Of a stretch of 64,000 nucleotides of DNA, positions 3,112-51,417 are shown one piece after another. The stretch is from an uncultured Gemmatimonas sp. (GTDB lineage Bacteria > Gemmatimonadota > Gemmatimonadetes > Longimicrobiales > Longimicrobiaceae). The DNA is taken from NCBI GenBank assembly GCA_964634395.1, contig CAZWJE010000004.1, forward strand, positions 24,733 through 88,732, read 5' to 3'. The position numbers and the translations under genes were made by a program. The notes under the pieces were generated by a model. That model ran no database searches and had not been told where the DNA came from. It was given only the letters and a program-made list of their open reading frames with translations. The number at the start of each line of letters is the position of its first letter. Position 1 is the stretch's first letter.

Positions 3112-4439
3112 CCGCGCCGGTCGGAGTGGCCGGTCGCGATCGCCCGGACTTCCGCCGCGGCGATCGCGTCGCCAGCGTCCCACTCGGGCAGGCGGATCAC
3201 GAACTGGCTTCCGCCACCCAGGCGGCTCTGTACCTCGATCCGTCCCCCATGCCGCTCGGCGAGCAGCCGAGCGATCGCCAGGCCCAGGCCCGTTCCGCCC
3301 GACTGGCCGCGCGCCGCGTCGCCCCGGTAGAATCGGTCGAACACGCGCGCGAGCTCTTCGGGGGCGATCCCCACGCCGGTGTCGACCACGCGGACTTCCA
3401 CCCACCCCTGATGGTTCGCGTCGACCGTGCGTTTCGCGGTCAGCGTGACTGAACCTTCCGGTGTGAACTTGACGGCGTTCGACACCAGGTTCAGGAATAT
3501 CTGCCGGAGCTGGCCGGCGTGGCCCGCGACGACGAGCCGTTCGGAGGAGCGCAACTCGACGCGCAGATCCTTCCCCGCCGCCAGCATCTGCCCCATCTCC
3601 ACCACGTCCTCGAGCAGCGGAGTGATCTCGACGGCGTCGCGAGGCGTCGCCTGCCGGTCCTCCTCGCTTCGCGCGAGGGTGAGCAGGCCATCGACCAGGT
3701 GAAGCATCCACTCCGTTTCCTCGTTGACGTCCGCGAGGGTTTCACGGAGCTCGTCGGCCGTACGTTCCCGGGAGAGGGCGACCTGAACGCTCCCCTGGAT
3801 CGAGGTCAACGGGGTTCGCAGTTCGTGGCTGGCGTCCGCCGTGAAGCGACGAAGGGCTTCGACGGCGTGCTCGAGACGCATAAGCATGCCGTTCACCGAA
3901 TGCGCCAGGTCGCGCAGGTCCGAAGGGGCTCGCGGTTCCGGTACGCGACGGGAGAGCCCGCCAATCCCGATCTCGCGCGTGGTTTCCACGAGCCGGCGGA
4001 GTGGGTCGAGCAGGCGCTCGAGAAGCACGCCCCCGCCGAGCGCGGCGGCACCCGCGGTGAGGGGGATGAGCAAGAGGGAGATGATCAGGAACGACCGGAG
4101 CGCCCGGCCTTCCACATCGCCCGCCGGGGTTACCGCGACCGTGAAGACCTCGTTCGTCGCGAGCACCGTCTGCCGACGGAGTGATCGGACCGACTCACCT
4201 TGCGCGTTCTGATAGGTGACGAACTCCTCGGCGGTTTCCAGTCGTGGGATCCGCGGCGGGATGGCGACGTTCTCGACCGCCTGCGCCGTCTGGCGGAGCG
4301 ATTCCTCTTCGGCGGCCGCCAGCGTCCGCGAGAGGAGGAAGTAGGCGGCGGTCGCGAAGAGGCCCAGCGCCACGACCAGCACCAGCGAGTACCAGACGAG
4401 GATCTCGCGCCGGAGCGAAACACCCGAGGCGCGGTTCAT
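3099..4439 (-). CDS. Sensor histidine kinase (2 TM, HAMP, HisKA, HATPase_c)
   Basis: H-box [12 protein letters not shown], the N/G1/G2 boxes ([25 protein letters not shown]), and an N-terminal TM segment. It overlaps the response-regulator gene by 4 bp. Confidence 0.85.
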
Positions 4440-7008: not shown

Positions 7009-7890
7009 TCAGCCGCGAAGGCCCCGAAGTACCGCGAGATTCCGTCGATCACTCGCGGTCGGATCGTCCTGCTTCGGTGTCTCGAGGAGCATCGGAAGGT
7101 CCTGGAAGCGTTCGTCGTTGACCAGGTTACGAAACCCCTCCAGTCCGATGTACCCTTCTCCGATCCATGCGTGGCGGTCGACCGCCGAGCCGAGTTTTCC
7201 CTGGCTGTCATTCAGATGCCAGACGTGGACTCGGCCCACGCCGATGAGATCGTCCAGCCGTGCCGTCACCTCTTCCCAGGAATTGGTGATGTCGTAGCCC
7301 GCCGCATAGAGGTGACAGCTGTCGAGGCAGATGCCGACACGCTCCGCGAACCCGGTCCCGTGTTGCTCGATCGCGCGGAGCATCGCCGCCAGTTCCTCGA
7401 AGGTGCTGCCCAGAATCGATCCCTTGCCGGTCGTGACCTCGAGGCAGATCCTCGTCGTGGAGTCGGGCGTCTCCTGGAGTACCGTCGCGATCGCGTCCGC
7501 GAGTCGGGCGACACCCGAGGGCCGGTCGCCGTCCGTCGCCGCGCCCGGGTGGAGCACCAACTGCGCGGCGCCGATCGTCGTACACCGCCGATACTCCGCC
7601 GCCAGGCTCGCCGCCGACTGCTCCTGGAGCTTCTCGTTTGGCGACGCCACGTTGATCAGATATGACGCGTGCACCGTGGTCCCCACGATCCCGTGCGTCT
7701 CGCACGCCGCCCGATACGCCGCGCCTTCCGTCTCGCTGAACTCAGGCTCCGCCCACCGCTGCGGTACCTTCGTGAAGATCTGAGCCCAACGGCTCCCGAT
7801 CTCTCGTGCCCGGGCCGGCGCGGTCGATACGCCGCCGCTGACGGATACGTGAGCACCGAACAGGTCGTCGATCGCAGCGGTTTCTGTCAC
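7009..7890 (-). CDS. nfo: Endonuclease IV (deoxyribonuclease IV)
   Basis: LFGAHVSVSGG...HASYLINVASP...HLNDSQGKLGSAVDRHAWIGEGYIG all match the Nfo family. GTG start at 7888-7890 with GGGAG 6 nt upstream. The 461-aa ORF in the track is an upstream read-through extension. Confidence 0.8.
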   Translation of the reverse strand: MTETAAIDDLFGAHVSVSGGVSTAPARAREIGSRWAQIFTKVPQRWAEPEFSETEGAAYRAACETHGIVGTTVHASYLINVASPNEKLQEQSAASLAAEYRRCTTIGAAQLVLHPGAATDGDRPSGVARLADAIATVLQETPDSTTRICLEVTTGKGSILGSTFEELAAMLRAIEQHGTGFAERVGICLDSCHLYAAGYDITNSWEEVTARLDDLIGVGRVHVWHLNDSQGKLGSAVDRHAWIGEGYIGLEGFRNLVNDERFQDLPMLLETPKQDDPTASDRRNLAVLRGLRG

Positions 7891-8115
7891 GTGCTTTCTC
7901 CCTGGATAAAGGCTTCCGCCAGCGTCACTGGCCGATGTGCCGGATCGTGCCGTCGTCATCCCGGCGACCCGATCCGCGCGGATCGCCCGGCCCCGGGCGA
8001 AGATGGGAATCGTACGGACGCGGCGCCGGCCGGGAAAGATCGCGAACACGTCGACCATCGCGACGACGTGCTTGACAGCGGCGCGAGCGGACCACACCTT
8101 GGCGTTCGATGTTTG

Positions 8116-8132
8116 AGAATGAGTTTCATTCT
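8116..8132. promoter_or_regulatory. Perfect 7-3-7 palindrome AGAATGA-GTT-TCATTCT ~63 bp upstream of the lipoprotein/HmuY-like/TBDR operon; candidate metalloregulator operator
   Basis: gtTTGAGAATGAGTTTCATTCTtaac in an AT-rich patch. The same core recurs upstream of feoB (14784-14800). Confidence 0.4.
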
Positions 8133-8194
8133 TAACTGGCGCTGGCCGATTCGGGCCGGCTGAACGTTTTTCGATCCGGGGGGGAGAGCATCGT

Positions 8195-9448
8195 ATGGAA
8201 TCCATCACGCCGCGCGTCGCGCGGCTCGCGCTCGCGGGCATCGTCCTGGCGAGCGTGGCGGGGTGCGGCGAGGACGTAGTCGGCCCGAAGGCCGACGTCA
8301 CTATCTGCACGACGAGCATCACGTCGGCCAACGCCGACACCTTCGTGGAGCTCTGCTCGCTCACGAATCCGGTTCGCCACGTACGGATCGACAATCTCAG
8401 CGCGCCGGCGACCCATGCGTTCTCGCAGATCGTGTTCGGCTTCCGTACACCGCCGGAGGCGACGCAGGGTCCTCTCGGCGCGGGTCAGTACAGGGTGCTC
8501 TTCTATGGAGGCGGAGTTCCCGCGCCGCCCGCTCTGGTGGATCTGACGTACGGTTCCGCGTCCGAGACGCTGGCGGGGCCGGCGGCGTTCATCAACGCGG
8601 GCGCGACGGTGTGTTTCGATCTGCATGACGGGAGCGCGACGGCCGCGCCGGCGTTCGTGCTCTGGGTCTCGGGGGAGCGCGGCGCGAACTGCGCCGACCG
8701 GAGCACGCTGACCGCGGCGACGGCGTTCGGAGTTCGGGCGGATTGGGACGGGCTGACGGGCGCGATCGACAAGCAGGCACACACCTATTTCAGGCAGTCG
8801 GTCGTGTCCGGGACGGGGCCGTCGATCACCCTCTCGGATGAGGCCGTGCTCAGCGCTGAGCAGATCGCGAGCGCGACGGCGTGCACGACCGCCTGGAGCG
8901 CGAACACCGACTGGCAGCGGCTCTGCGCTCCGGCGACCGGGACCGTCCGCCACGTGCGGCTCGAAGGGGTCGAGGCGACGGCGAACAACAGCTATTTCTA
9001 CGCGATCCTCGGGCAGGACCCCGATCCGACGGGCAACCCGGCGGCCTCGGCCGGCAAACTGATCGTCACGGGTGGCCGTTCGCACTCGGGGACGTCCTGG
9101 ACGTGGTTCCGCTTCGGTGGCGGTAGCACGACGCAGTTCAGCTATGAGGGAGACGGCGGCGCCGGGCTCTACGTCGACGGTCCGACCACGATCTGTTTCG
9201 ATCTGGGGACGGCCTCGGGTGGGCGTGCCCGGTTCGTCTTCTGGGCGACAGGCGCCAACCAGGCCGACTGCGCCGACCGTTCGACGCTCACGCTCGAACG
9301 CGCGCTCTATGACAGTTCGACGGACCCCTCGACCGCGGATATCTGGGACGCGGCGTACGTGACGGGCAAGCTCAACTTCGTGAAGACGAACACCACGAAC
9401 GTCGGGGTGGGGAACGTGGTCGTTTCTTCGGAAGCGGCGGTGCTCTGA
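8195..9448 (+). CDS. Lipoprotein with an internally duplicated domain (hypothetical)
   Basis: Lipobox LASVAGC. Two homologous halves: NPVRHVRIDNLSA...TVCFDLHDGSATAAPAFVLWVSGERGANCADRSTLT versus GTVRHVRLEGVEA...TICFDLGTASGGRARFVFWATGANQADCADRSTLT. The stop overlaps the next start (TGATG). Confidence 0.6.
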   Translation: MESITPRVARLALAGIVLASVAGCGEDVVGPKADVTICTTSITSANADTFVELCSLTNPVRHVRIDNLSAPATHAFSQIVFGFRTPPEATQGPLGAGQYRVLFYGGGVPAPPALVDLTYGSASETLAGPAAFINAGATVCFDLHDGSATAAPAFVLWVSGERGANCADRSTLTAATAFGVRADWDGLTGAIDKQAHTYFRQSVVSGTGPSITLSDEAVLSAEQIASATACTTAWSANTDWQRLCAPATGTVRHVRLEGVEATANNSYFYAILGQDPDPTGNPAASAGKLIVTGGRSHSGTSWTWFRFGGGSTTQFSYEGDGGAGLYVDGPTTICFDLGTASGGRARFVFWATGANQADCADRSTLTLERALYDSSTDPSTADIWDAAYVTGKLNFVKTNTTNVGVGNVVVSSEAAVL

Positions 9449-10101
9449 TGGGCGTCGAGAGCAATCGGGAAGACGGTCGACGGAGGTCAGGGGGAACGAC
9501 CGCGCGAGATCGACGAAGATTCTCGCGGTGGACCGCGATTCTCTGCCTGGCCGCGGCGCCGATCGTCGCGGCGGGTTGCTCGGACAGCGCCACGGGGCCG
9601 GAAAGGGACGACGCGCCGCCGACCTTCACGGTTGACGCTTCCAAGGATACGATCTACATCGCCCTTGGAAGCTCACCCCGGACGCTGTCCGTCGTCGATC
9701 CGGCGACGTCGACCGATTGGGATCTGGCGATCTTCGCCACGGAGATCACGGCGAACGGCGGTGAAGCGGGGCCGGGCGGAGTGACGGTTCACTGTGTCTG
9801 CCAGAACGCCGGCGCGACCGATGCGCGGATCACCGCGATGACGGCCGAGTCGGAGTTGCCGGCGTTCGCCGCCTTCACGGCCGCCGGCATTCCGCCGGCG
9901 GGAGCGGCCTGGAGCCCGACGGCGATCGTCGACAATCCGTGGTACTGGTACGATTTCGATGCCCACTTCATCTACTCTACGTTCAACGTATACCTGTTGA
10001 AGCGCGGATCCACGGTATACAAGCTTCAGTTTACCGGATATTACGGGCCGAGCGGTCAATCGCGGATAGTCCAGTTCCGCTATGAAACATTGGTGAACTG
10101 A
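9448..10101 (+). CDS. Lipoprotein, possibly HmuY-like (putative haem/iron-binding), translationally coupled to TBDR
   Basis: Lipobox VAAGC. ~200 aa, placed directly upstream of a TonB-dependent receptor with overlapping stop/start codons at both ends. The HmuY-like call rests on size and context only. Confidence 0.4.
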   Translation: MGVESNREDGRRRSGGTTARDRRRFSRWTAILCLAAAPIVAAGCSDSATGPERDDAPPTFTVDASKDTIYIALGSSPRTLSVVDPATSTDWDLAIFATEITANGGEAGPGGVTVHCVCQNAGATDARITAMTAESELPAFAAFTAAGIPPAGAAWSPTAIVDNPWYWYDFDAHFIYSTFNVYLLKRGSTVYKLQFTGYYGPSGQSRIVQFRYETLVN

Positions 10102-12305
10102 TGGACCGTGCACCGAGAACACCGGCGGTCCGCCGGAACGCGGTCGACCCGTGCGTCGAGGGTGGAGCTCGGACCGGCCGGAGGCGGTCCTCCCGAGGAC
10201 GGAGCGTCGTCATCCTGGCGCTGGCCCTGGCGGCCGGCATGGTGACATCCGCGCCGGCGCTTGCGCGCCAGGGCGCGGCCCTCTCCGGCCGGGTGGTGGA
10301 CGCGAGTACGGGCGCGCCGGTGCGGGGTGCCGTCGTGGTGCTCGAGGGTGCATCGGAAGGAGGACAGGTCACCGACGACGAGGGTCGCTGGCGTCTTTCC
10401 GCGGTGACTTCGGGGGCGGCGACGGTGCTCGTGTCACATATCGGCTACGCGCCCTGGCGTGGCACAGTCACGGGTGCCGACCAGACGATCCGCCTGACCC
10501 CCCGTGTCGTCGCGCTCGATGAGGTGGTGATCACGGCCGCGCGGCGGTTGCAGCGGCTCGCGGACGTGGCCATCGCCACCGAAGTGATCTCTCGTCGGGA
10601 GATCGAACACTCCGGCACCTCCGATCTTTCCCGCGTGCTGATCGAACGCCTCGGTATCCAGGTGGAAGGCGGGGTCGGCTCGGGCGAGGGCGTCATGATC
10701 CAGGGTCTGGGTTCGCAACGCGTGCTGATCCTCCTCGACGGCCAGCCCGTGGTCGGCCGGGTCGACGGGATGCTGGACGTTTCCCGGCTCCCGGTTTCCT
10801 CCGTCGAGCGCATCGAAGTGATGAAGGGGCCTCAGTCCTCGCTGTACGGGACCGACGCGATTGGCGGCGTGGTGAACATCGTGACGCGCGGGCTCGATGG
10901 TCCTCGCTGGCGAGGCGGAGTGGAATTGACGGCCGGCACCGAAGGACGGCTGGACGGGACTGTTTCCCTCGGGGGCAGCCGCGACGAAGTGGGTTATCTG
11001 GTCACCCTGGGTCGACGGGCGACGGATCTCACGCCCGGTCGCTCAGCGACCGCGGGTGCTCTGGCGGAACGCTGGGATGGAATGTTGAAGGCCGACTGGC
11101 GAGCGTCGCCGTCGGTGACGGTGCACGCGAGCGGTCTCTGGGTCGATGACCTGCAACGCTGGCGGACAGGGCCCCTGTACAACTTTTCCGAGGGCGACCA
11201 GTGGATGGGCCGACTCGGCGCCGATGTGACGATCGGCGAAACCCGACTCGCGCCGACGCTCTATTTTTCGGAGTTCGCCCGCCTCTACCGTCAGTCCATC
11301 ACTCCCGACCCCGTCGCGGATTCCGGCAACCACGAACTCCAGCGACTGATCGAGGGAGAACTTCTCTACAACGGGACCGTTCAGGGACTGGCCGTGGATG
11401 GTGGCGTTGAGGGTCGTCGTGAGTATATCGAGTCGGAGCGGATCCTGACGCACGAGCGCGCGCTGCATACGCTGGAACCGTTCGCGCAGGTGACGATCGG
11501 TGGCGACCGGCTTCAACTGGTTCCCGGCGCACGGCTCGTGTGGAGCGAGCAGTGGGGAACGCATTTCACGCCCCGGCTGGCCGCGTTCTATCGTCCGGTG
11601 GAGTCCGTGGCGATCCGGGCGGCGGCGGGTCTGGGATACCGGGCGCCGGACTTCAAGGAACTAGGGATGTCGTTCCTGAACGTCGGTGCCGGAATCGGCT
11701 ACGAAGTGCGCGGAAACCCGAACCTCCTGCCGGAGAACTCGGAGAATCTCACGCTCAGCGTCGAATGGGGTGGCGCCACCCGCTATCTGCGGGTGCAGGG
11801 GTTCCACAACCAGTTCGATGATTTCATCCAGAACGTGCTCGCCGGCGATTCCGCCGGCCTTCAGATCTACAGCTACGGAAACGTCGAGCGCGGGTACACT
11901 CGTGGGCTGGAGACGGAGGTGGGGCTCACCCATGGTGGCCTGAGAGTGGAGGGCGGCTACTCCTGGTTGCGCGCGCATGACCGCGATCTCGACCGGCCGC
12001 TTCTGGGACGGCCCGCGCGTTCGGGGCGGCTGATGGTGGAACATCCGCTGCCACTGTCGAGCCGTCTGGCGTTCACGGCGAGTTACACCGGCACCACCCC
12101 CATGGAACACGGAGAGACCGGGGATCGGTATCGCCCGGCTTTCACGCGGTTGGACCTGCGCCTCTCGAGCACTCTACCGCGGGGAGTCCGGATATCGGCG
12201 GGCGTCCACAACCTCCTCGACGAGGTTCCCGAGGAATGGCCGGGCTACGGCCGTCGGCAGCTGTACCTGGGTCTCAACTGGAGTCTGCCCGAGGGCGCCT
12301 TCTGA
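10101..12305 (+). CDS. TonB-dependent receptor with N-terminal carboxypeptidase-regulatory-like domain
   Basis: Signal peptide, then GRVVDASTGAPVRGAVVVLEG (CarbopepD_reg-like), then a plug region (DEVVITAAR...SGTSDLSRVL, IEVMKGPQSSLYGTDAIGGVVNIVTR) and a long beta-barrel ending in an aromatic residue. Confidence 0.85.
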   Translation: MDRAPRTPAVRRNAVDPCVEGGARTGRRRSSRGRSVVILALALAAGMVTSAPALARQGAALSGRVVDASTGAPVRGAVVVLEGASEGGQVTDDEGRWRLSAVTSGAATVLVSHIGYAPWRGTVTGADQTIRLTPRVVALDEVVITAARRLQRLADVAIATEVISRREIEHSGTSDLSRVLIERLGIQVEGGVGSGEGVMIQGLGSQRVLILLDGQPVVGRVDGMLDVSRLPVSSVERIEVMKGPQSSLYGTDAIGGVVNIVTRGLDGPRWRGGVELTAGTEGRLDGTVSLGGSRDEVGYLVTLGRRATDLTPGRSATAGALAERWDGMLKADWRASPSVTVHASGLWVDDLQRWRTGPLYNFSEGDQWMGRLGADVTIGETRLAPTLYFSEFARLYRQSITPDPVADSGNHELQRLIEGELLYNGTVQGLAVDGGVEGRREYIESERILTHERALHTLEPFAQVTIGGDRLQLVPGARLVWSEQWGTHFTPRLAAFYRPVESVAIRAAAGLGYRAPDFKELGMSFLNVGAGIGYEVRGNPNLLPENSENLTLSVEWGGATRYLRVQGFHNQFDDFIQNVLAGDSAGLQIYSYGNVERGYTRGLETEVGLTHGGLRVEGGYSWLRAHDRDLDRPLLGRPARSGRLMVEHPLPLSSRLAFTASYTGTTPMEHGETGDRYRPAFTRLDLRLSSTLPRGVRISAGVHNLLDEVPEEWPGYGRRQLYLGLNWSLPEGAF

Positions 12306-12503: not shown

Positions 12504-14681
12504 TCAGCCCGCGAAGCCCAGGAAGAGACCGCCGCGGTAGACCACGAAAGCGGCGACGTAGGCCAGGACGAACATCCACAGAAACTGAAACACCGCCCAC
12601 TTCGCGCCGGTCCATCCACCGCCCGTTTCCCGCACGACGACGGCGTTCGTGCTCACGCACATCATCGCGAACACATAGAAGACCATCAGCGCGACCGCGA
12701 TCAACGGCGTATAGGCGGGAGCGCCGTCCGGTCCGACCTCCTGGACGAGCCTTTCCCGCAGCGCGACCGAGGTCTCATCGGCCTCATTGCCCACGCCATA
12801 GATGGTGCCCATCGTGGCGACGAACACCTCACGCGCGGCGAACGAGCTGATGATCGAGACGCCGATCTTCCAATCGAACCCGAGCGGGGCCACGACAGGC
12901 TCCACGGCGTGACCCGCCCGACCCAGGAAGCTGCCGGCGAGCTGCGCCTCCTGAGCGAGTTCAGGTGTCAACGTCGCCGACGAATCGAGCCGGGGATAGG
13001 TCGCGAGCGCCCATAGCACGATCGTCAGGGCGAAGATGATCGTGCCCGCGCGCCGCAGAAAGATCCCCGCGCGCTGCATCACCGCGAGCGCGAGACTCCG
13101 AGGATTCGGAAAACGGTAGGGTGGCAGTTCCATGATCATCGGCTGCGAAGGCCCCTTCAAGAGCGTCTTCTTGAAGATCCCCGCGATCACGAGCGCCGCC
13201 GCCGTCCCGAGGAAATACATCGTCAGCAGGGTGAGTCCCCGCAGATTGAAGAAACCGGCCACCGTCGTCGCCGGAATGAATGTGCCGATCAACAACGTGT
13301 ACACGGGAAGGCGCGCCGAGCAGCTCATCAGCGGCACGACCATGATCGTCGCCAGCCGGTCCTGCGGGTTGTCGATCGTTCGCGCGGCCATGATCCCCGG
13401 AACGGCGCACGCGTATCCCGAAAGCATCGGGATGAAGCTCCGTCCATGCAGCCCGACGCCCCTCATGAAGCGATCCATGATGAACGCCGCCCGCGCCATG
13501 TAGCCCGTCGCCTCCAGAATCCCGATGAAGGCGAAAAGGATGACGATCTGCGGAAGGAAGACGACGACGGATCCGACACCCGCGATCACGCCGTCAACGA
13601 GGAGACTGCGCAGCTGGCCCTCGGGGAGCGTCGCTCTGACCGCGCTCGCGACGCCTCCGATCAACCCTTCCACGCCGGTCATGAGCGGCTCGGCCCAGGT
13701 GAAGATCGACTGGAATACGACCGCCATCAGCGCGAGGAAGATGAGCGGCCCGAAGACGCGATGGAGAAGGATCGCGTCGACCCGGTCGGTGAGCGTCTTC
13801 CCTCCGCCTCCGATGCGGTGCACGGTCTCGTCCATGACCTCCGCGATCCAGCCATAGCGGAGCTCCGCCTCCACCGCCCGCGTGTGGTACCCCTCGCCGC
13901 GAAGGGCCTCACGCGCTCGCTCCACCACCTCCTCCAGACCCTTCACCCCGCCCAGATGCCGGGACGGGGCGACTGACAGGAGCCGCAGCGCTTCCATCCC
14001 CGCCGCCGGTCCGGTGATCCCGCCACGGGCGAGCACTTCCTCCACCGGAGCGAGCGCTCGCGCGATCGCCTCCGGCAGGGCGAATCGTCGCGCCGGCGCG
14101 GGCAGCCCAGGCGCTCGTTCAATCGCGCGACGGAGCACGTCGATCCCCGTTCCGCGGGTAGCCACGGTGGCGACGACCTGCGCGCCCAGCCGCATCGCCA
14201 GCTCCACCGCGTCGATCCGCACGCCCGCCGTCTCCGCCGCGTCGACCTGGTTCAGCGCCACCACCACCGGCAGCCCCAGCTCCAGCACCTGACTGGTCAG
14301 GAAGAGGTTGCGCTCCAGATTCGACGCGTCGACCACCAGGACCACGACATCCGGCGCCGGCATGGACGGCGTCAGGCCCAGCAGAACCTCCAGCGCGATC
14401 TCCTCGTCCGGCGAGGTCGCCGACAGGCTGTACGCGCCGGGCAGGTCGAGCACGGAGACGTCCACGCCGCTCTCGCTCCGATACCGACCCTCGATCCGCT
14501 CCACGGTCACGCCCGCGTAGTTGCCCACTCGCTGGCGCATTCCCGTAAGCGCGTTGAACAGAGTGCTCTTTCCCGTGTTCGGATTGCCGATGAGGGCGAT
14601 CCGCATGGTTCGCGAAGCGTCGGGTGACGCGGATCGGGACGGGCCGACGGGGCCGGTCGTGGCGACGCCAGGGGCGGCCAT
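12504..14681 (-). CDS. feoB: Ferrous iron transporter B
   Basis: G-protein domain IALIGNPNTGKSTLFNALTG followed by a polytopic membrane domain. AAGGA sits 7 nt upstream of the ATG at 14681. Confidence 0.9.
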   Translation of the reverse strand: MAAPGVATTGPVGPSRSASPDASRTMRIALIGNPNTGKSTLFNALTGMRQRVGNYAGVTVERIEGRYRSESGVDVSVLDLPGAYSLSATSPDEEIALEVLLGLTPSMPAPDVVVLVVDASNLERNLFLTSQVLELGLPVVVALNQVDAAETAGVRIDAVELAMRLGAQVVATVATRGTGIDVLRRAIERAPGLPAPARRFALPEAIARALAPVEEVLARGGITGPAAGMEALRLLSVAPSRHLGGVKGLEEVVERAREALRGEGYHTRAVEAELRYGWIAEVMDETVHRIGGGGKTLTDRVDAILLHRVFGPLIFLALMAVVFQSIFTWAEPLMTGVEGLIGGVASAVRATLPEGQLRSLLVDGVIAGVGSVVVFLPQIVILFAFIGILEATGYMARAAFIMDRFMRGVGLHGRSFIPMLSGYACAVPGIMAARTIDNPQDRLATIMVVPLMSCSARLPVYTLLIGTFIPATTVAGFFNLRGLTLLTMYFLGTAAALVIAGIFKKTLLKGPSQPMIMELPPYRFPNPRSLALAVMQRAGIFLRRAGTIIFALTIVLWALATYPRLDSSATLTPELAQEAQLAGSFLGRAGHAVEPVVAPLGFDWKIGVSIISSFAAREVFVATMGTIYGVGNEADETSVALRERLVQEVGPDGAPAYTPLIAVALMVFYVFAMMCVSTNAVVVRETGGGWTGAKWAVFQFLWMFVLAYVAAFVVYRGGLFLGFAG

Positions 14682-14783
14682 CAGGTGGTCCTTCGCGGCA
14701 TGCCGATTCCGGCGCGGGGATGTGTGGAGGTGACGGGATCACCGATCATGGCGGGACGGGGATGGGGAAGACAAAGTCGGTTG

Positions 14784-14800
14784 AGAATGAATTTCATCCA
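14784..14800. promoter_or_regulatory. AGAATGA-ATT-TCATCCA operator-like palindrome ~100 bp upstream of feoB
   Basis: cggTTGAGAATGAATTTCATccaatcataaattt. It shares TTGAGAATGA[A/G]TTTCAT with the 8116 site and lies in a 320-bp feoA-feoB gap. Confidence 0.35.
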
Positions 14801-15003
14801 ATCATAAATTTCGCGGGCCGACTTCACAAGCGGGAGGCCTGGTTGACGCCCGCCGATCGCGCGTCCCGGGTCACGGCGCGGTCGGTGCCTCGCGGATGGC
14901 GTTGACGCGGTGTCGGGTAGGGAAGGAGAGGCCGTTCCGGGCGGCCCCCCGGGGGGCGCGACGCTGGCGCGGACGGGGGAGGGGGGACGGACGTCGCCCG
15001 GAT

Positions 15004-15243
15004 TCAGCGCAACAGCACCTGCTCGGCTTCCGCGCGACGAAGCGTGAGCATGAAGCCGCGGAGGGTGATCTCGATCGGGTCGCCGAGCGGAGCGACCCGG
15101 ATCATGCGGATCGACGTGCCGCGGATCAGCCCGAGGTCCATCAATCGACTCGTGACCGAAGATTCGCCGAGCACCGATACGATCGTGCCCGTTTCGCCGG
15201 GGCGGAGTTCCAGGAGTGTTCTGGGCATCGAGGGAGAACTCAA
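15004..15243 (-). CDS. feoA: Ferrous iron transport protein A
   Basis: FeoA SH3-like domain: LRPGETGTIVSVLGESSVTSRLMDLGLIRGTSIRMIRVAPLGDPIEITLRGFMLTLRRAEAEQVLL. Confidence 0.75.
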   Translation of the reverse strand: MSSPSMPRTLLELRPGETGTIVSVLGESSVTSRLMDLGLIRGTSIRMIRVAPLGDPIEITLRGFMLTLRRAEAEQVLLR

Positions 15244-15527
15244 CCGTCGAGGGGAAGGACCGTGATCGCGTTCGCCAGCGCGGCCCCAAGGGCCAGACGG
15301 GAGCCGGCGACCTCGAGCAGGAGCCCACTCCGCCGATCGACGACGATCACGCAGCTGCCTTCAAAGAGCCCGAGGTTCCGTAGCCGGCTGGCCTCCCGTT
15401 CCTCACACTCCATCCGGAGTACCGCGGCGCGACATCCGGACGCGCATTCCGCGAGGGGACACCCCGCGCGCGACCCGGCCGCGGGCGTCGGTATCGAGGC
15501 GCGGGATTTCCACCAGGAGAGCGCCAT
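15240..15527 (-). CDS. Second FeoA-domain protein
   Basis: LAECASGCRAAVLRMECEEREASRLRNLGLFEGSCVIVVDRRSGLLLEVAGSRLALGAALANAITVLPL. The ATG at 15525-15527 is chosen as start; a GTG at 15602 is an alternative. Confidence 0.55.
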   Translation of the reverse strand: MALSWWKSRASIPTPAAGSRAGCPLAECASGCRAAVLRMECEEREASRLRNLGLFEGSCVIVVDRRSGLLLEVAGSRLALGAALANAITVLPLDG

Positions 15528-15927
15528 GTCGAGGTACGAGCGGGAGACGCGGATGATGAGAACGATTCTCAGCGAATGATGGTGGTGGCGACCCGAAAAC
15601 ACAAGTGTCGGGGGCGGGAAGACCGGGGGGTTGGCGGGCTCCTTCGTCGGGTCGCGAAGAGCTTGGGATCATTGACTTTTCGCGTTCCTGACCGTAGAGT
15701 TCGAGCAGTTCGGGGCGCGGCGGGAAGTCCCATTTTTGAGCCAACAGTTTTGAAGCCGGGGCCAACTTTAACGGTAGACGTCACGCCCCCTCGGGGAAGG
15801 CGGAAACTGCTGGGAAGCCACCATCCGTATCGTACAGGCTTCAGAAATCCTTGCCGGCGCGCCCTACGCCCGGGTCGGTCTCTCGCGGGAGGCCGGCCCT
15901 TTTTTTCATCGTCATGAGGGGGAGGTC

Positions 15928-16344
15928 GTGATGCCAACGGTGCGCGTCACGCGGCGACTCCATTTCTCGGCGGCGCACCGGCTGAACAGCGACCGCCTCT
16001 CGCCCGAAGAGAACACCGCGTTCTACGGACTATGCAACAGCCCGAACTATCACGGTCACAACTATGAACTCGAGGTGACCGTCGAGGGGCGGATCGACCC
16101 GGATACCGGGTACGTGATGGATCTGGGCAGGCTGAAGGCGATCGCGGAGGAGGTGGTGATCACGGATCTCGATCACCGGAACCTCAACCTGGACGTGGAG
16201 TGGCTGGAGGGGGTGATCCCGTCCGCCGAGAACCTGGTCGTGCGCATCTGGGAACGGCTCGCGGGACGGATCCCCGGTGGGCGCCTGGTTAAACTCATCC
16301 TCTGGGAGACGCCGCGAAATTACGCGGAATATACGGGAGACTGA
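15928..16344 (+). CDS. 6-pyruvoyl-tetrahydropterin synthase family (PTPS/QueD-like)
   Basis: Cys-x-x-x-HGH motif ([15 protein letters not shown]) and the catalytic-His region. Confidence 0.8.
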
Positions 16345-16349
16345 CAGAC

Positions 16350-16964
16350 ATGAGTGGAGTCGCGACCGAGGGGAGAAGTGGCGCCGTCGATGGCGGGAGT
16401 CCGTCATTCATGGCGCTCGTCGCGGAACAGATACGCCAGTTGGGTGAGGATCCGGCGCGACCGGGGCTGATCCGCACGCCGGAGCGCGTGGAGAAGAGTC
16501 TGCGCTGGTTGACGCGCGGGTACGAGATGTCCGTCCATGAAGTCGTGGGGAACGCGATCTTCGACGAGGATCACCACAACCTGGTGATGGTGAAGGACAT
16601 CGAGATGTATTCGCTGTGCGAGCATCATCTGCTGCCTTTCTTCGGAAAGGTGCACATCGGGTACATTCCGAACGGCAGAATCGTCGGGTTGAGCAAGTTG
16701 CCGCGGGTGGTGGAGGTCTTCGCGCGACGTCTGCAGGTTCAGGAACGATTGACGGAGCAGATCGCGGGTGCCCTGATGGACGTCCTCGACCCGCAGGGAG
16801 TGGCGGTCGTCGTCGAGGCGGCGCACCTCTGCATGATGATGCGTGGCGTGGAGAAGCAGAACTCGAAGACGATCACCAGCGCCATGCGGGGCGTGTTCAT
16901 GGAGGACCTCGGGACCCGGGAGGAGTTTCTTCGGCTCTGCATGGTCCACAGCGTGATGGGATGA
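16350..16964 (+). CDS. folE: GTP cyclohydrolase I
   Basis: [18 protein letters not shown]...[15 protein letters not shown], typical of FolE type I. Confidence 0.9.
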
Positions 16965-17756: not shown

Positions 17757-18137
17757 ATGTTCATCATCAATGTGAAGTCGCATTACGACGCCGCGCACTT
17801 CATTCGGGAGTACAACGGGAAGTGCGAGAACCTCCACGGCCACCGCTATGAAGTCGAGGTGGCGCTCGCGTTCGACGACGTGGGGACCGGAGGCATGGCC
17901 TATGACTTCACGGAGGCGAAGCGACATCTGCGGGCCATCACCGACGAACTCGACCATCAGAACCTGAATGACCTCCCGGCGTTCGCGGAGATCGAAACGA
18001 GTTCCGAGAACCAGGCGCGCCACATCTTCATGGAGATGAAGAAGCGTCTCGATGACGTCGGTGAGAACCTCCTCTACGTGAGAGTCTGGGAGACACCGAA
18101 CCAGTGGGCGCAGTACTCCGAGCGCCTGATCTTCTGA
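17757..18137 (+). CDS. Second 6-pyruvoyl-tetrahydropterin synthase family protein (PTPS/QueD paralog)
   Basis: CENLHGHRYEVEV motif, 126 aa. Confidence 0.75.
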   Translation: MFIINVKSHYDAAHFIREYNGKCENLHGHRYEVEVALAFDDVGTGGMAYDFTEAKRHLRAITDELDHQNLNDLPAFAEIETSSENQARHIFMEMKKRLDDVGENLLYVRVWETPNQWAQYSERLIF

Positions 18138-49410: not shown

Positions 49411-49509
49411 CCGCCGCGCCTGTCCGCCTGAGCCGCGCCCGGCTACGTTTGTCGCGGGCGATACGCACGCAAACTTCGCGCGCCGCTATCGGCGCTCGCC
49501 GCGCGATTC

Positions 49510-49941
49510 ATGTCAGAGACCGACCTCACACCTTCCCAGCAGGCGATACTCCGACGATTGCCGGAAACGTTCCCGCCGGATCGGATCGACCGGCTGTGGA
49601 TCTTTCCCCCACACGTTGCCGCGGGACGGGAATCGGGGTTCGTCGTCATCTCCCTGCTCGATTCCGAGCCCGACGATCCGGAACGGGCGATGACGCACCG
49701 AACCCTCTTCACCTATCGATATGAGACGCATCCAGTGAAGGGCGGGATGCGTCGCGACGAGCGAGTCACGGAGGAGGGAAGCGCTCCGGTCGAGCGGATC
49801 GATCGCGTGATCGCCGGCGTGCTCGCCCGTTCCGCCGCCAACGCGGTCGAGCCGATTTCGGAGGCGCTGGGCGGAGACGAGTCACGATGGTCCGCGTTCC
49901 TCGACCGCTTCGGCCTCTCGGTCACCACCACCGAAACTTGA
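49510..49941 (+). CDS. Hypothetical protein (143 aa)
   Basis: Clean ORF with reasonable composition and no recognised motif. Confidence 0.4.
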   Translation: MSETDLTPSQQAILRRLPETFPPDRIDRLWIFPPHVAAGRESGFVVISLLDSEPDDPERAMTHRTLFTYRYETHPVKGGMRRDERVTEEGSAPVERIDRVIAGVLARSAANAVEPISEALGGDESRWSAFLDRFGLSVTTTET

Positions 49942-49950
49942 CCGCGGTAG

Positions 49951-49970
49951 TCGATAATCATTATTGTTAC
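49951..49970. promoter_or_regulatory. Canonical Fur box upstream of fur
   Basis: tcGATAATCATTATtgttac matches the Fur consensus core GATAATGATAATCATTATC. It lies ~80 bp upstream of the fur ATG, consistent with autoregulation. Confidence 0.5.
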
Positions 49971-50049: not shown

Positions 50050-50535
50050 ATGTCGCCCTACATTCAGCTCTTCCGTCGCTACCTTCGGGAGCAGGGACTA
50101 CCGGTGACACCCCAGCGCGAGGCGGTCGCGGATGTCATCTTCAACTCACAGGGCCACCTCTCGGTCGAGGACATCGAGAAAGCGCTGCGCAGTACCGGCG
50201 AGCGGATCGGCAAGGCGACGATCTATCGGACGCTCGAGATTCTCGTACGCAGCGGCCTCGTCGAAGAGCACGACTTCGGTGAGGGCTTCAAGCGCTACGA
50301 GCATCTCTTCGGACAGACTCCGGTCCACGAACACCTGATCTGTGTCAACTGTCACGAGGTGGTGGAGTTCCAGAGCCCGGAAGCGGTGCGGGTCCAGGAG
50401 CTTACCGCTCGGGCTCATGGATTCATTCCCGTCCGCCACCGGCTGGATGTCTATGGTCTCTGCGGCAACTGCCAGGCGGAGGGCGTCGTGCTGCCCGACG
50501 AAGGGTTGACCTGTCCGGTCGAACTCCTGGCGTAG
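50050..50535 (+). CDS. fur: Ferric uptake regulator family protein
   Basis: LREQGLPVTPQREAVADVIF...HLSVEDIE...IGKATIYRTLEILV (wHTH), metal sites HEHLICVNCHEV and CGNC. GGAAGGA sits 8 nt upstream of the ATG. Confidence 0.85.
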   Translation: MSPYIQLFRRYLREQGLPVTPQREAVADVIFNSQGHLSVEDIEKALRSTGERIGKATIYRTLEILVRSGLVEEHDFGEGFKRYEHLFGQTPVHEHLICVNCHEVVEFQSPEAVRVQELTARAHGFIPVRHRLDVYGLCGNCQAEGVVLPDEGLTCPVELLA

Positions 50536-50687: not shown

Positions 50688-51089
50688 TCAGGAGGCTTTC
50701 CTGACCGCCGTCGCGTTCGTCATGTACATGCCCTGCGCGACATCGATCCCGGCGGTGAGATTCTCCCCTTGCGGCGTGAGCTTCACGGTGATCGGCGCGC
50801 TCTGCCCCTCGATGTCCAGGACGTAGTTGAGCGTCAGCGACTCGTCGGCCCGCGTGACCGAGGTGGCCCGCGAGGTACTCCCCATGGCGCTCATATCGGC
50901 GGCCACCTGGCCGTCCACGTCGAGAATGGTCAGCTCCACCGGCGTGCCTTCCACGTTCATCGTCCAGGAGCCCATGAACTCCGCGGCGTCCGAGACCGGG
51001 ACGGTCTGCGCGGTGGCCCCGGAAAGAGCCGCCACGAAAGTGGCGAAGAATACGATCGCCAGGATGGAAACGTTCTTCGGGATCGACAT
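50688..51089 (-). CDS. Secreted hypothetical protein (signal peptide)
   Basis: MSIPKNVSILAIVFFATFVAALSGATAQ signal peptide. 133 aa. Confidence 0.45.
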   Translation of the reverse strand: MSIPKNVSILAIVFFATFVAALSGATAQTVPVSDAAEFMGSWTMNVEGTPVELTILDVDGQVAADMSAMGSTSRATSVTRADESLTLNYVLDIEGQSAPITVKLTPQGENLTAGIDVAQGMYMTNATAVRKAS

Positions 51090-51417
51090 GGGCGAATCAC
51101 TCCGGATCGGGTGGGAGGCACGGGACCGCGTAGCGGAATCCGGGACAGGTACCGCAAGAATAATCGCTCCCCGGTGAGTTGGGAAAGGATCTCATACGCG
51201 AACCGCGAAGATCGCGGCCGCGGATCCGGGGCCCGCGCGGAACGGCGCATGGCCTCCCGGCGCTCCCGGCGGAAACGCATTCTGGCGGATGACTGTACCA
51301 TCGTGCGGGATCTGATTATGTTAAATGGCTATGCCGGATCCGGCCCCGGCCGGAACGCTGACCAGGATCAACCGAACTCCCGCGCGGGGTTAATCCCCGG
51401 TGAAGGCCCTTCCGCCT

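Follow-up and report, generated by a model that had tools for sequence, protein, structure and literature searches.

Genes and palindromic sites in the window

The window, i.e. the entire 64,000-nucleotide stretch of Gemmatimonadota DNA analyzed here, has a G+C content of ~67% and encodes proteins for iron uptake together with a regulator of the FUR family. An operon on the plus strand (8195-12305) contains genes for a lipoprotein (8195-9448), an HmuY-like protein (9448-10101, Pfam HmuY) and a TonB-dependent receptor with an N-terminal CarboxypepD_reg domain (10101-12305, Pfam). The lipoprotein had no Pfam match, and a lipobox (VAGC) was read in its translation. Divergent from this operon is a gene for a xylose-isomerase-like TIM barrel protein (7009-7890, minus strand, Pfam). 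Examination of the receptor for the FRAP/NPNL motifs of haem receptors revealed YRAP and NPNL with no histidine between them; the genes of this operon are putative haem uptake genes. The ferrous iron transporter gene feoB (12504-14681, minus strand; Pfam FeoB_N, Gate and FeoB_C) is preceded on the same strand by two FeoA-like open reading frames, feoA1 (15240-15527) and feoA2 (15004-15243, NCBIfam FeoA match), and the order feoA1-feoA2-feoB is kept in approximately 45 Gemmatimonadota loci. The presumed regulator, fur, is located at 50050-50535 (plus strand; Pfam FUR, 7.8e-31). The gene calls of the first-pass annotation (HmuY-like protein, TonB-dependent receptor, feoB and fur) agree with Pfam.

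Three sites upstream of these genes had been described previously and were recovered at the same positions: a perfect 7-3-7 palindrome, AGAATGAGTTTCATTCT, at 8116-8132, followed after 63 bp by the ATG at 8195; a related site, TTGAGAATGAATTTCATCCA, at 14781-14800, with the feoB ATG (14681, minus strand) 100 bp downstream; and a Fur-type box, GATAATCATTAT, at 49953-49964, ~85 bp before the FUR-family gene. A further copy upstream of the feo genes, absent from the earlier description, was obtained from a search with the 15-mer TGAGAATGANTTTCA allowing up to three mismatches. This copy, TGAGAACGATTCTCA, lies at 15557-15571, 29 nt upstream of the feoA1 ATG, and has one mismatch to the ideal palindrome. 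The sites before the lipoprotein gene, feoB and feoA1 are referred to below as sites 1, 2 and 3, respectively.

The unit common to the sites is a 15-bp inverted repeat in a 7-1-7 register, TGAGAAT-N-ATTCTCA. Putative Fur box 1 occupies 8114-8128 (TGAGAATGAGTTTCA) in the 5' region of the lipoprotein-HmuY-TonB receptor operon, putative box 2 occupies 14782-14796 (TGAGAATGAATTTCA, or TGAAATTCATTCTCA in gene orientation), and putative box 3 corresponds to 15557-15571. All three match TGAnAAT-N-ATTnTCA, agreeing with TGAGAATNATTCTCA at 12-13 of 14 positions and with the Bacillus subtilis Fur 15-mer at 11 of 14. Within the window, the 15-mer search with up to three mismatches yielded six matches against 1.18 expected, a count that no shuffle attained, while the AT-rich 17-mer TTGAGAATGANTTTCAT occurred twice against 0.00 expected in shuffles. 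The 64 kb contain three boxes, all of them before genes for iron uptake, a significant excess relative to shuffles. The 7-3-7 pattern alone was not significant (two matches with up to three mismatches, reached by 14 of 100 shuffles). Site 2 has two arm mismatches to it and site 3 fits only the 7-1-7 register. The 7-3-7 repeat, previously taken as the shared unit, was consequently rejected as the functional unit, since site 2, site 3 and the sites in orthologous operons retain only the 15-bp 7-1-7 repeat. A search of the whole window with Rfam gave no match at the box sites.

At site 1, box 1 is overlapped at a 6-bp offset by a second, weaker 7-1-7 repeat (8120-8134, TGAGTTTCATTCTTA) with three mismatches to the consensus, and the perfect 7-3-7 palindrome arises because the two repeats overlap symmetrically. 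This pair has the layout of the classical 19-21 bp Fur box, the 21-bp form of which likewise consists of two 7-1-7 repeats offset by 6 bp. In the 19-bp register, positions 8115-8133 agree with the Escherichia coli consensus GATAATGATAATCATTATC, itself read as overlapping TGATAAT-N-ATTATCA repeats in the B. subtilis model, at 13 of 19 positions. The minus strand of box 1 has the sequence TGAAACTCATTCTCA, which is also the feoA1 operator sequence in six Longimicrobiaceae/Gemmatimonadales loci, identifying the 15-bp register as the conserved unit. A striking perfect palindrome can thus be a by-product of two overlapping 7-1-7 repeats. Further downstream in the 5' leader, between box 1 and the ribosome binding site (RBS) of the lipoprotein gene, is a terminator-like hairpin (8143-8172; TGGCCGATTCGGGCCGGCTG followed by AACGTTTTTC); one such hairpin was found against 0.3 expected, and it may represent an attenuator or have arisen by chance.

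Promoter context and conservation in relatives

Promoter elements were predicted next to each box. An internal feoB promoter was called by the promoter scan at 14801-14829 on the minus strand (-35 TTGTGA at 14829-14824, a 17-nt spacer and -10 TATGAT at 14806-14801; 9 of 12 positions), with box 2 beginning 4 nt past the -10; in gene orientation the site reads TATGAT, tgga, then the box. A tentative feoA1 promoter on the minus strand (15576-15605), read from the sequence, consists of -35 CTTGTG (15605-15600), an 18-nt spacer and a -10-like CATCAT (15581-15576); here too the box starts 4 nt further on, in the order CATCAT, tcgc, box. The tentative promoter of the TonB-receptor operon (8071-8100, plus strand), also read from the sequence, comprises -35 CTTGAC (8071-8076) and a weak -10 candidate, CACCTT (8095-8100), with box 1 beginning 13 nt past the latter; this promoter was not called by the consensus promoter scan. 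At sites 2 and 3, and in the orthologous operon of locus L002 described below, the boxes follow -10-like hexamers by 4-5 nt; at fur, the box lies over the -10. Gemmatimonadota promoters repeatedly show a conserved -35 element, CTTGAC (or CTTGTG), located 17-18 nt upstream of a TAnnAT-like -10, both in the window (49937-49942 and 8071-8076) and in relatives (L002 and L081-L091).

In order to establish whether the boxes are retained before orthologous genes, a check that the first-pass annotation had proposed, loci of related genomes were compared. Both orthologous HmuY/TonB-receptor operons with upstream DNA available (L002 and L091) carry a box. The L002 operon, whose receptor is 66% identical, reads CTTGAC-N18-TAGTAT-N5-TGAAAATCATTCTCA-RBS-ATG, and the L091 operon (receptor 50% identical) reads CTTGAC-N18-TACACT-N10-TGAGAATGAGTCTCA-RBS-ATG; the CTTGAC of site 1 is thus found before both. 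The 7-1-7 register is kept in L002 and L091, whereas the outer (right) arm of the 7-3-7 palindrome and the weaker 7-1-7 repeat are conserved in neither. A metagenome scan with the TonB-dependent receptor returned true orthologues only in L091 and L092, the latter ending at the gene start; the other 78 loci contained distant receptors (~22-34% identity) and were uninformative. Among the distant receptors, the low-GC (41%) metagenome contigs L100 and L101 contain TGAGAATGATTGTGA at position 3888, ~110 bp before a TonB receptor with 32% identity, further evidence that the GAGAAT-type box is widespread beyond the Gemmatimonadota.

The feo operon was compared by a FeoB-based scan with one genome per species. 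The best FeoB matches were from Gemmatimonadota/Gemmatimonas metagenome-assembled genomes (75-81% identity), followed by Longimicrobiaceae at ~68-71%, which places the window in the Gemmatimonadota. A box with up to three mismatches was found just upstream of feoA1 in 41 of the 44 Gemmatimonadota loci with enough upstream DNA; it was absent in the more distant feo loci L037 and L048, and L005 had none in its 82 nt of upstream sequence. The 43 distinct box sequences follow T-G-A-(A/G)-A-(C/A/T)-T-(G/C)-A-T-T-C-T-C-A. Eleven positions (TGA, the A at position 5 and ATTCTCA) show essentially no variation, and the left half-site is frequently reduced to TGAAACT, whereas no alignment of the flanks is possible. 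Elsewhere in these feo loci, five box matches were detected in 601 kb, three of which are equivalents of the feoB-internal or TonB-receptor sites. The three-mismatch matches at L008:4403 and L015:9661 had no informative gene context and were regarded as background. Feo loci of Planctomycetota and Verrucomicrobiota contain TGAGAyT-N-AkTCTCA at the equivalent place. Together with the fur promoters considered below (nine distinct sequences), the orthologous loci show a box conserved upstream of orthologous genes amid diverging flanks.

The intergenic region on the far side of feoA1 contains a probable 6S RNA (SsrS) gene (15672-15906, plus strand), with counterparts between feoA1 and queD in L001 (8796-8951, minus strand) and L002 (7460-7629, minus strand). 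The candidates aligned over the full length of Rfam RF00013 in three genomes and in a syntenic place, with 20.9, 24.6 and 26.9 bits, all below the gathering score of 46.4. In the window, a promoter-like TTGACT-17-TAGAGT (15672-15700) stands before the candidate, and a strong terminator (15872-15899) with a T run comes after it. The three sequences are much better conserved than the adjoining intergenic DNA and fold as a rod with a long closing stem; two of 47 predicted pairs are kept through change on both sides. Divergent from the feo operon are three genes (15928-16344, 16350-16964 and 17757-18137) encoding two 6-pyruvoyl-tetrahydropterin synthase (QueD-like) paralogues and a type I GTP cyclohydrolase (folE), and queD-folE also stands beside feoA in L001 and L002.

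The fur gene and its promoter

The product of the FUR-family gene scored 94 bits against the NCBIfam Fur model, 79 against PerR and 44 against Zur, all under the equivalog cut-offs. Its closest solved structures are the Fur proteins of Campylobacter jejuni and Magnetospirillum, with B. subtilis PerR nearly as close. The predicted protein contains the recognition helix ATIYRTL (with Arg), HEH (HxH), VVEF and two CxxC motifs. PerR carries Asn at the position of this Arg. These features favor identification of the regulator as Fur over Zur or PerR. Orthologues across the phylum share 73-89% identity, and the neighborhood is conserved as a small ORF of unknown function, fur, sometimes arginase, and typA. 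A wider order of arginine decarboxylase, an ArgZ-like gene, the small ORF, fur, arginase and typA is recurrent across the phylum; the window lacks the arginase gene and has an unknown minus-strand ORF (50688-51191) in its place. The small ORF is always directly upstream of fur (49432-49941, plus strand, in the window, and in L081-L090), is 118-170 aa long and has no Pfam match, and its stop codon falls inside the fur -35 CTTGAC. A second FUR-family gene was observed in L009, a Longimicrobiaceae locus, ~4 kb downstream of feoB (16003-16440, minus strand); it scored 105 bits against PerR and 73 against Fur, and its upstream region is GC-rich and contains no Fur-type box.

The putative Fur box at the fur promoter (49952-49966, CGATAATCATTATTG) overlaps the -10 element TATTGT (49962-49967), which sits 18 nt past TTGACC, the -35 being CTTGAC at 49937-49942. 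Its right half, ATTATTG, departs from ATTCTCA. Nine distinct orthologous fur promoters were aligned on the conserved -35 CTTGAC, yielding N10-(GAGAAT x5, AAGAAT x2, GATAAT x2)-N-ATTAT(T/C)G-TT. The GATAAT of the window is thus a minority variant of the GAGAAT half-site used by the uptake boxes. Since the orthologous fur promoters mostly read GAGAAT-N-ATTATYG, all four sites in the window belong to one motif family, and the proposal that the palindrome is distinct from the canonical box before fur was not borne out. An assignment of "canonical" and "variant" boxes to two regulators was dropped on the same nine promoters. The right half probably reads ATTATYG rather than ATTCTCA because it is also the -10 element, and it could be conserved simply as such. 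Conservation of GAGAAT within the spacer between the -35 and -10 would be unexpected without a bound factor, making autoregulation of fur the simplest reading.

Predicted Fur operators and alternative readings

Comparison with published operators revealed the same box variant in other bacteria. In a fur mutant of Enterococcus faecalis, feoA/feoB and an iron ABC transporter are derepressed; they are preceded by TGAGAACGATTCTCA and TGAGAATGATTCTCA, respectively (PMC6056675). In Xanthomonas campestris, Fur-regulated TonB-receptor genes are preceded by the consensus AATGAgAATcATTctCATT, which the authors describe as a poor match to the E. coli consensus (PMC1790865). The E. faecalis Fur box, TGAGAA(T/C)GATTCTCA, and the X. 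campestris consensus have a 15-bp 7-1-7 core in common with the boxes in the window. Site 3 is identical to the E. faecalis feoA box, base for base, and the sites agree with the Xanthomonas 19-mer at 14-15 of 19 positions. The gene classes downstream are also the same, namely feoAB and TonB-dependent receptors. In contrast to these two species, the host phylum here is Gemmatimonadota and the left half-site is often TGAAACT. Promoter overlap and autoregulation of fur (here suggested by the conserved spacer) are shared with the classical Fur box, from which the boxes of the window type differ by a G or A in place of T at half-site position 4; furthermore, only one 7-1-7 unit is present at site 2, at site 3 and at each orthologous site. 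PerR (TTATAAT-N-ATTATAA) and Zur boxes have the 7-1-7 layout in common with the window boxes, but the PerR consensus is matched poorly and the neighboring genes relate to iron rather than to zinc or peroxide. The earlier proposal of a lineage-specific Fur site variant is supported as regards a variant of the Fur site, while its restriction to one lineage does not hold, given the occurrences in E. faecalis, X. campestris, Planctomycetota and Verrucomicrobiota.

The palindromes are most probably operators of the Fur encoded at 50050-50535, of the TGAGAAT-N-ATTCTCA subtype and conferring iron-responsive repression. We infer Fur binding and the response to iron from the identity of the motif with published boxes, from its context and from its conservation. 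The window encodes a Fur-type regulator, and the boxes lie directly after or over the predicted -10 elements of iron-acquisition promoters, a position that fits Fur repression by promoter occlusion. When iron is plentiful, a Fur dimer with Fe2+ would bind each box and, as the box lies directly after or over the -10, would block RNA polymerase. The promoters shut off in this manner would be those of the lipoprotein-HmuY-TonB receptor operon (box 8114-8128), the feoA1-feoA2(-feoB) operon (box 15557-15571) and the internal feoB promoter (box 14782-14796) and, more weakly, that of fur itself (box 49952-49966). Under iron scarcity, Fur would dissociate from the DNA, allowing expression of the uptake genes. 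The overlapping pair of 7-1-7 repeats at site 1 might accommodate a second dimer, in the manner of classical 19-bp Fur boxes.

A different member of the Fur family, encoded outside the window, might instead bind the GAGAAT-type boxes (a second Fur, or a Zur-like, Mur-like or Irr-like protein), with the Fur at 50050 reading only its own ATAAT-type box; we consider this unlikely. One or two base changes per half-site suffice to separate the Fur, PerR and Zur boxes of B. subtilis, and position 4 of the half-site is T in the fur box of the window and G in the uptake boxes. However, most orthologous fur promoters contain GAGAAT, not GATAAT, and the supposed distinction is thereby lost. In at least one relative, another FUR-family gene is located a few kb away from feoB, but this sole paralogue seen is PerR-like and has GC-rich upstream DNA without a box. 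The actinobacterial Zur box is TGAAAATNATTTTCA, which the boxes resemble with two mismatches at sites 1 and 2. This resemblance was given no weight, as the boxes precede feo and HmuY genes, the window regulator has its best score as Fur, and sequences identical to the boxes are published Fur sites. That the targets are Fe2+ and HmuY-type uptake genes, and that high conservation across the phylum is seen for the Fur orthologue as well as for the box, argues in the same direction. A more specific form of this reading is a split Fur regulon, in which an unseen second Fur-family paralogue for Fe2+/haem uptake reads the feo and HmuY/TonB-receptor boxes and the conserved Fur next to typA uses the ATTATYG-type box at its own promoter; this is improbable. 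In such a regulon, a difference of one or two bases in each half-site would specify the split.

As the binding protein is predicted from sequence, a metalloregulator outside the Fur family (for example DtxR/IdeR, RirA or IscR) or a non-metal site might also be considered. The boxes nonetheless have the TGA...TCA ends in a 7-1-7 register and the AAT-N-ATT core, agree with 11 of 14 positions of the B. subtilis consensus, and include one identical to a published Fur site. The IdeR box is TTAGGTTAGGCTAACCTAA and the RirA box TGA-N9-TCA, and the boxes resemble neither these nor the IscR consensus, so that an operator of this type is highly improbable. The first-pass annotation had itself offered the operator of a different metalloregulator as an alternative to Fur, which found no support since the motif class is not distinct and the half-site is that of the orthologous fur promoters (GAGAAT in five of nine). 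Chance similarity, or AT-rich promoter DNA (-10/-35 elements) mistaken for an operator, might be suspected from the adjoining promoter elements and the insignificance of the 7-3-7 pattern alone. This reading is effectively already refuted, as the 17-mer occurs twice against none expected, the box is invariant in 43 distinct sequences in which the neighboring -10 and -35 elements vary, and approximately two unexplained matches were found in 601 kb.

Judged from sequence, the shared palindrome is real and conserved, yet it marks an ordinary predicted Fur regulon of a known box subtype, leaving knowledge of Fur itself unchanged. A literature search with Gemmatimonas and "Fur box" found no described Fur box. 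The comparisons supply a usable Fur-box consensus for the mostly uncultured Gemmatimonadota, gTTGA(A/G)A(C/A/T)T-N-ATTCTCA, and a putative first core regulon for the phylum comprising feoA1A2B, the HmuY/TonB-receptor operon and fur. Both may aid annotation and the reconstruction of iron regulons in metagenome-assembled genomes.

Site 2 had been described as upstream of the feoB unit. It does precede feoB, but since feoA1 and feoA2 come before feoB it lies within the feoA2-feoB spacer and not before the whole feo unit. Among the ~45 Gemmatimonadota loci, a non-coding feoA2-feoB spacer of 220-320 bp was found only in the window (14682-15003, 320 bp), L001 (~9647-9955, ~310 bp) and L046 (~1511-1731, ~220 bp). 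Each of the three spacers carries promoter-like elements and one box, the boxes of the relatives being at position 9846 in L001 and 1649 in L046; the L001 site is laid out like site 2 (CTTGTA ... TATCAT, tcat, then the box). In the remaining feo loci, feoA2 and feoB nearly abut and the second box is absent. A lineage-specific feoA2-feoB spacer with its own predicted, box-controlled promoter is better supported than a split regulon, and such a promoter would allow feoB to be transcribed separately from the feoA genes.
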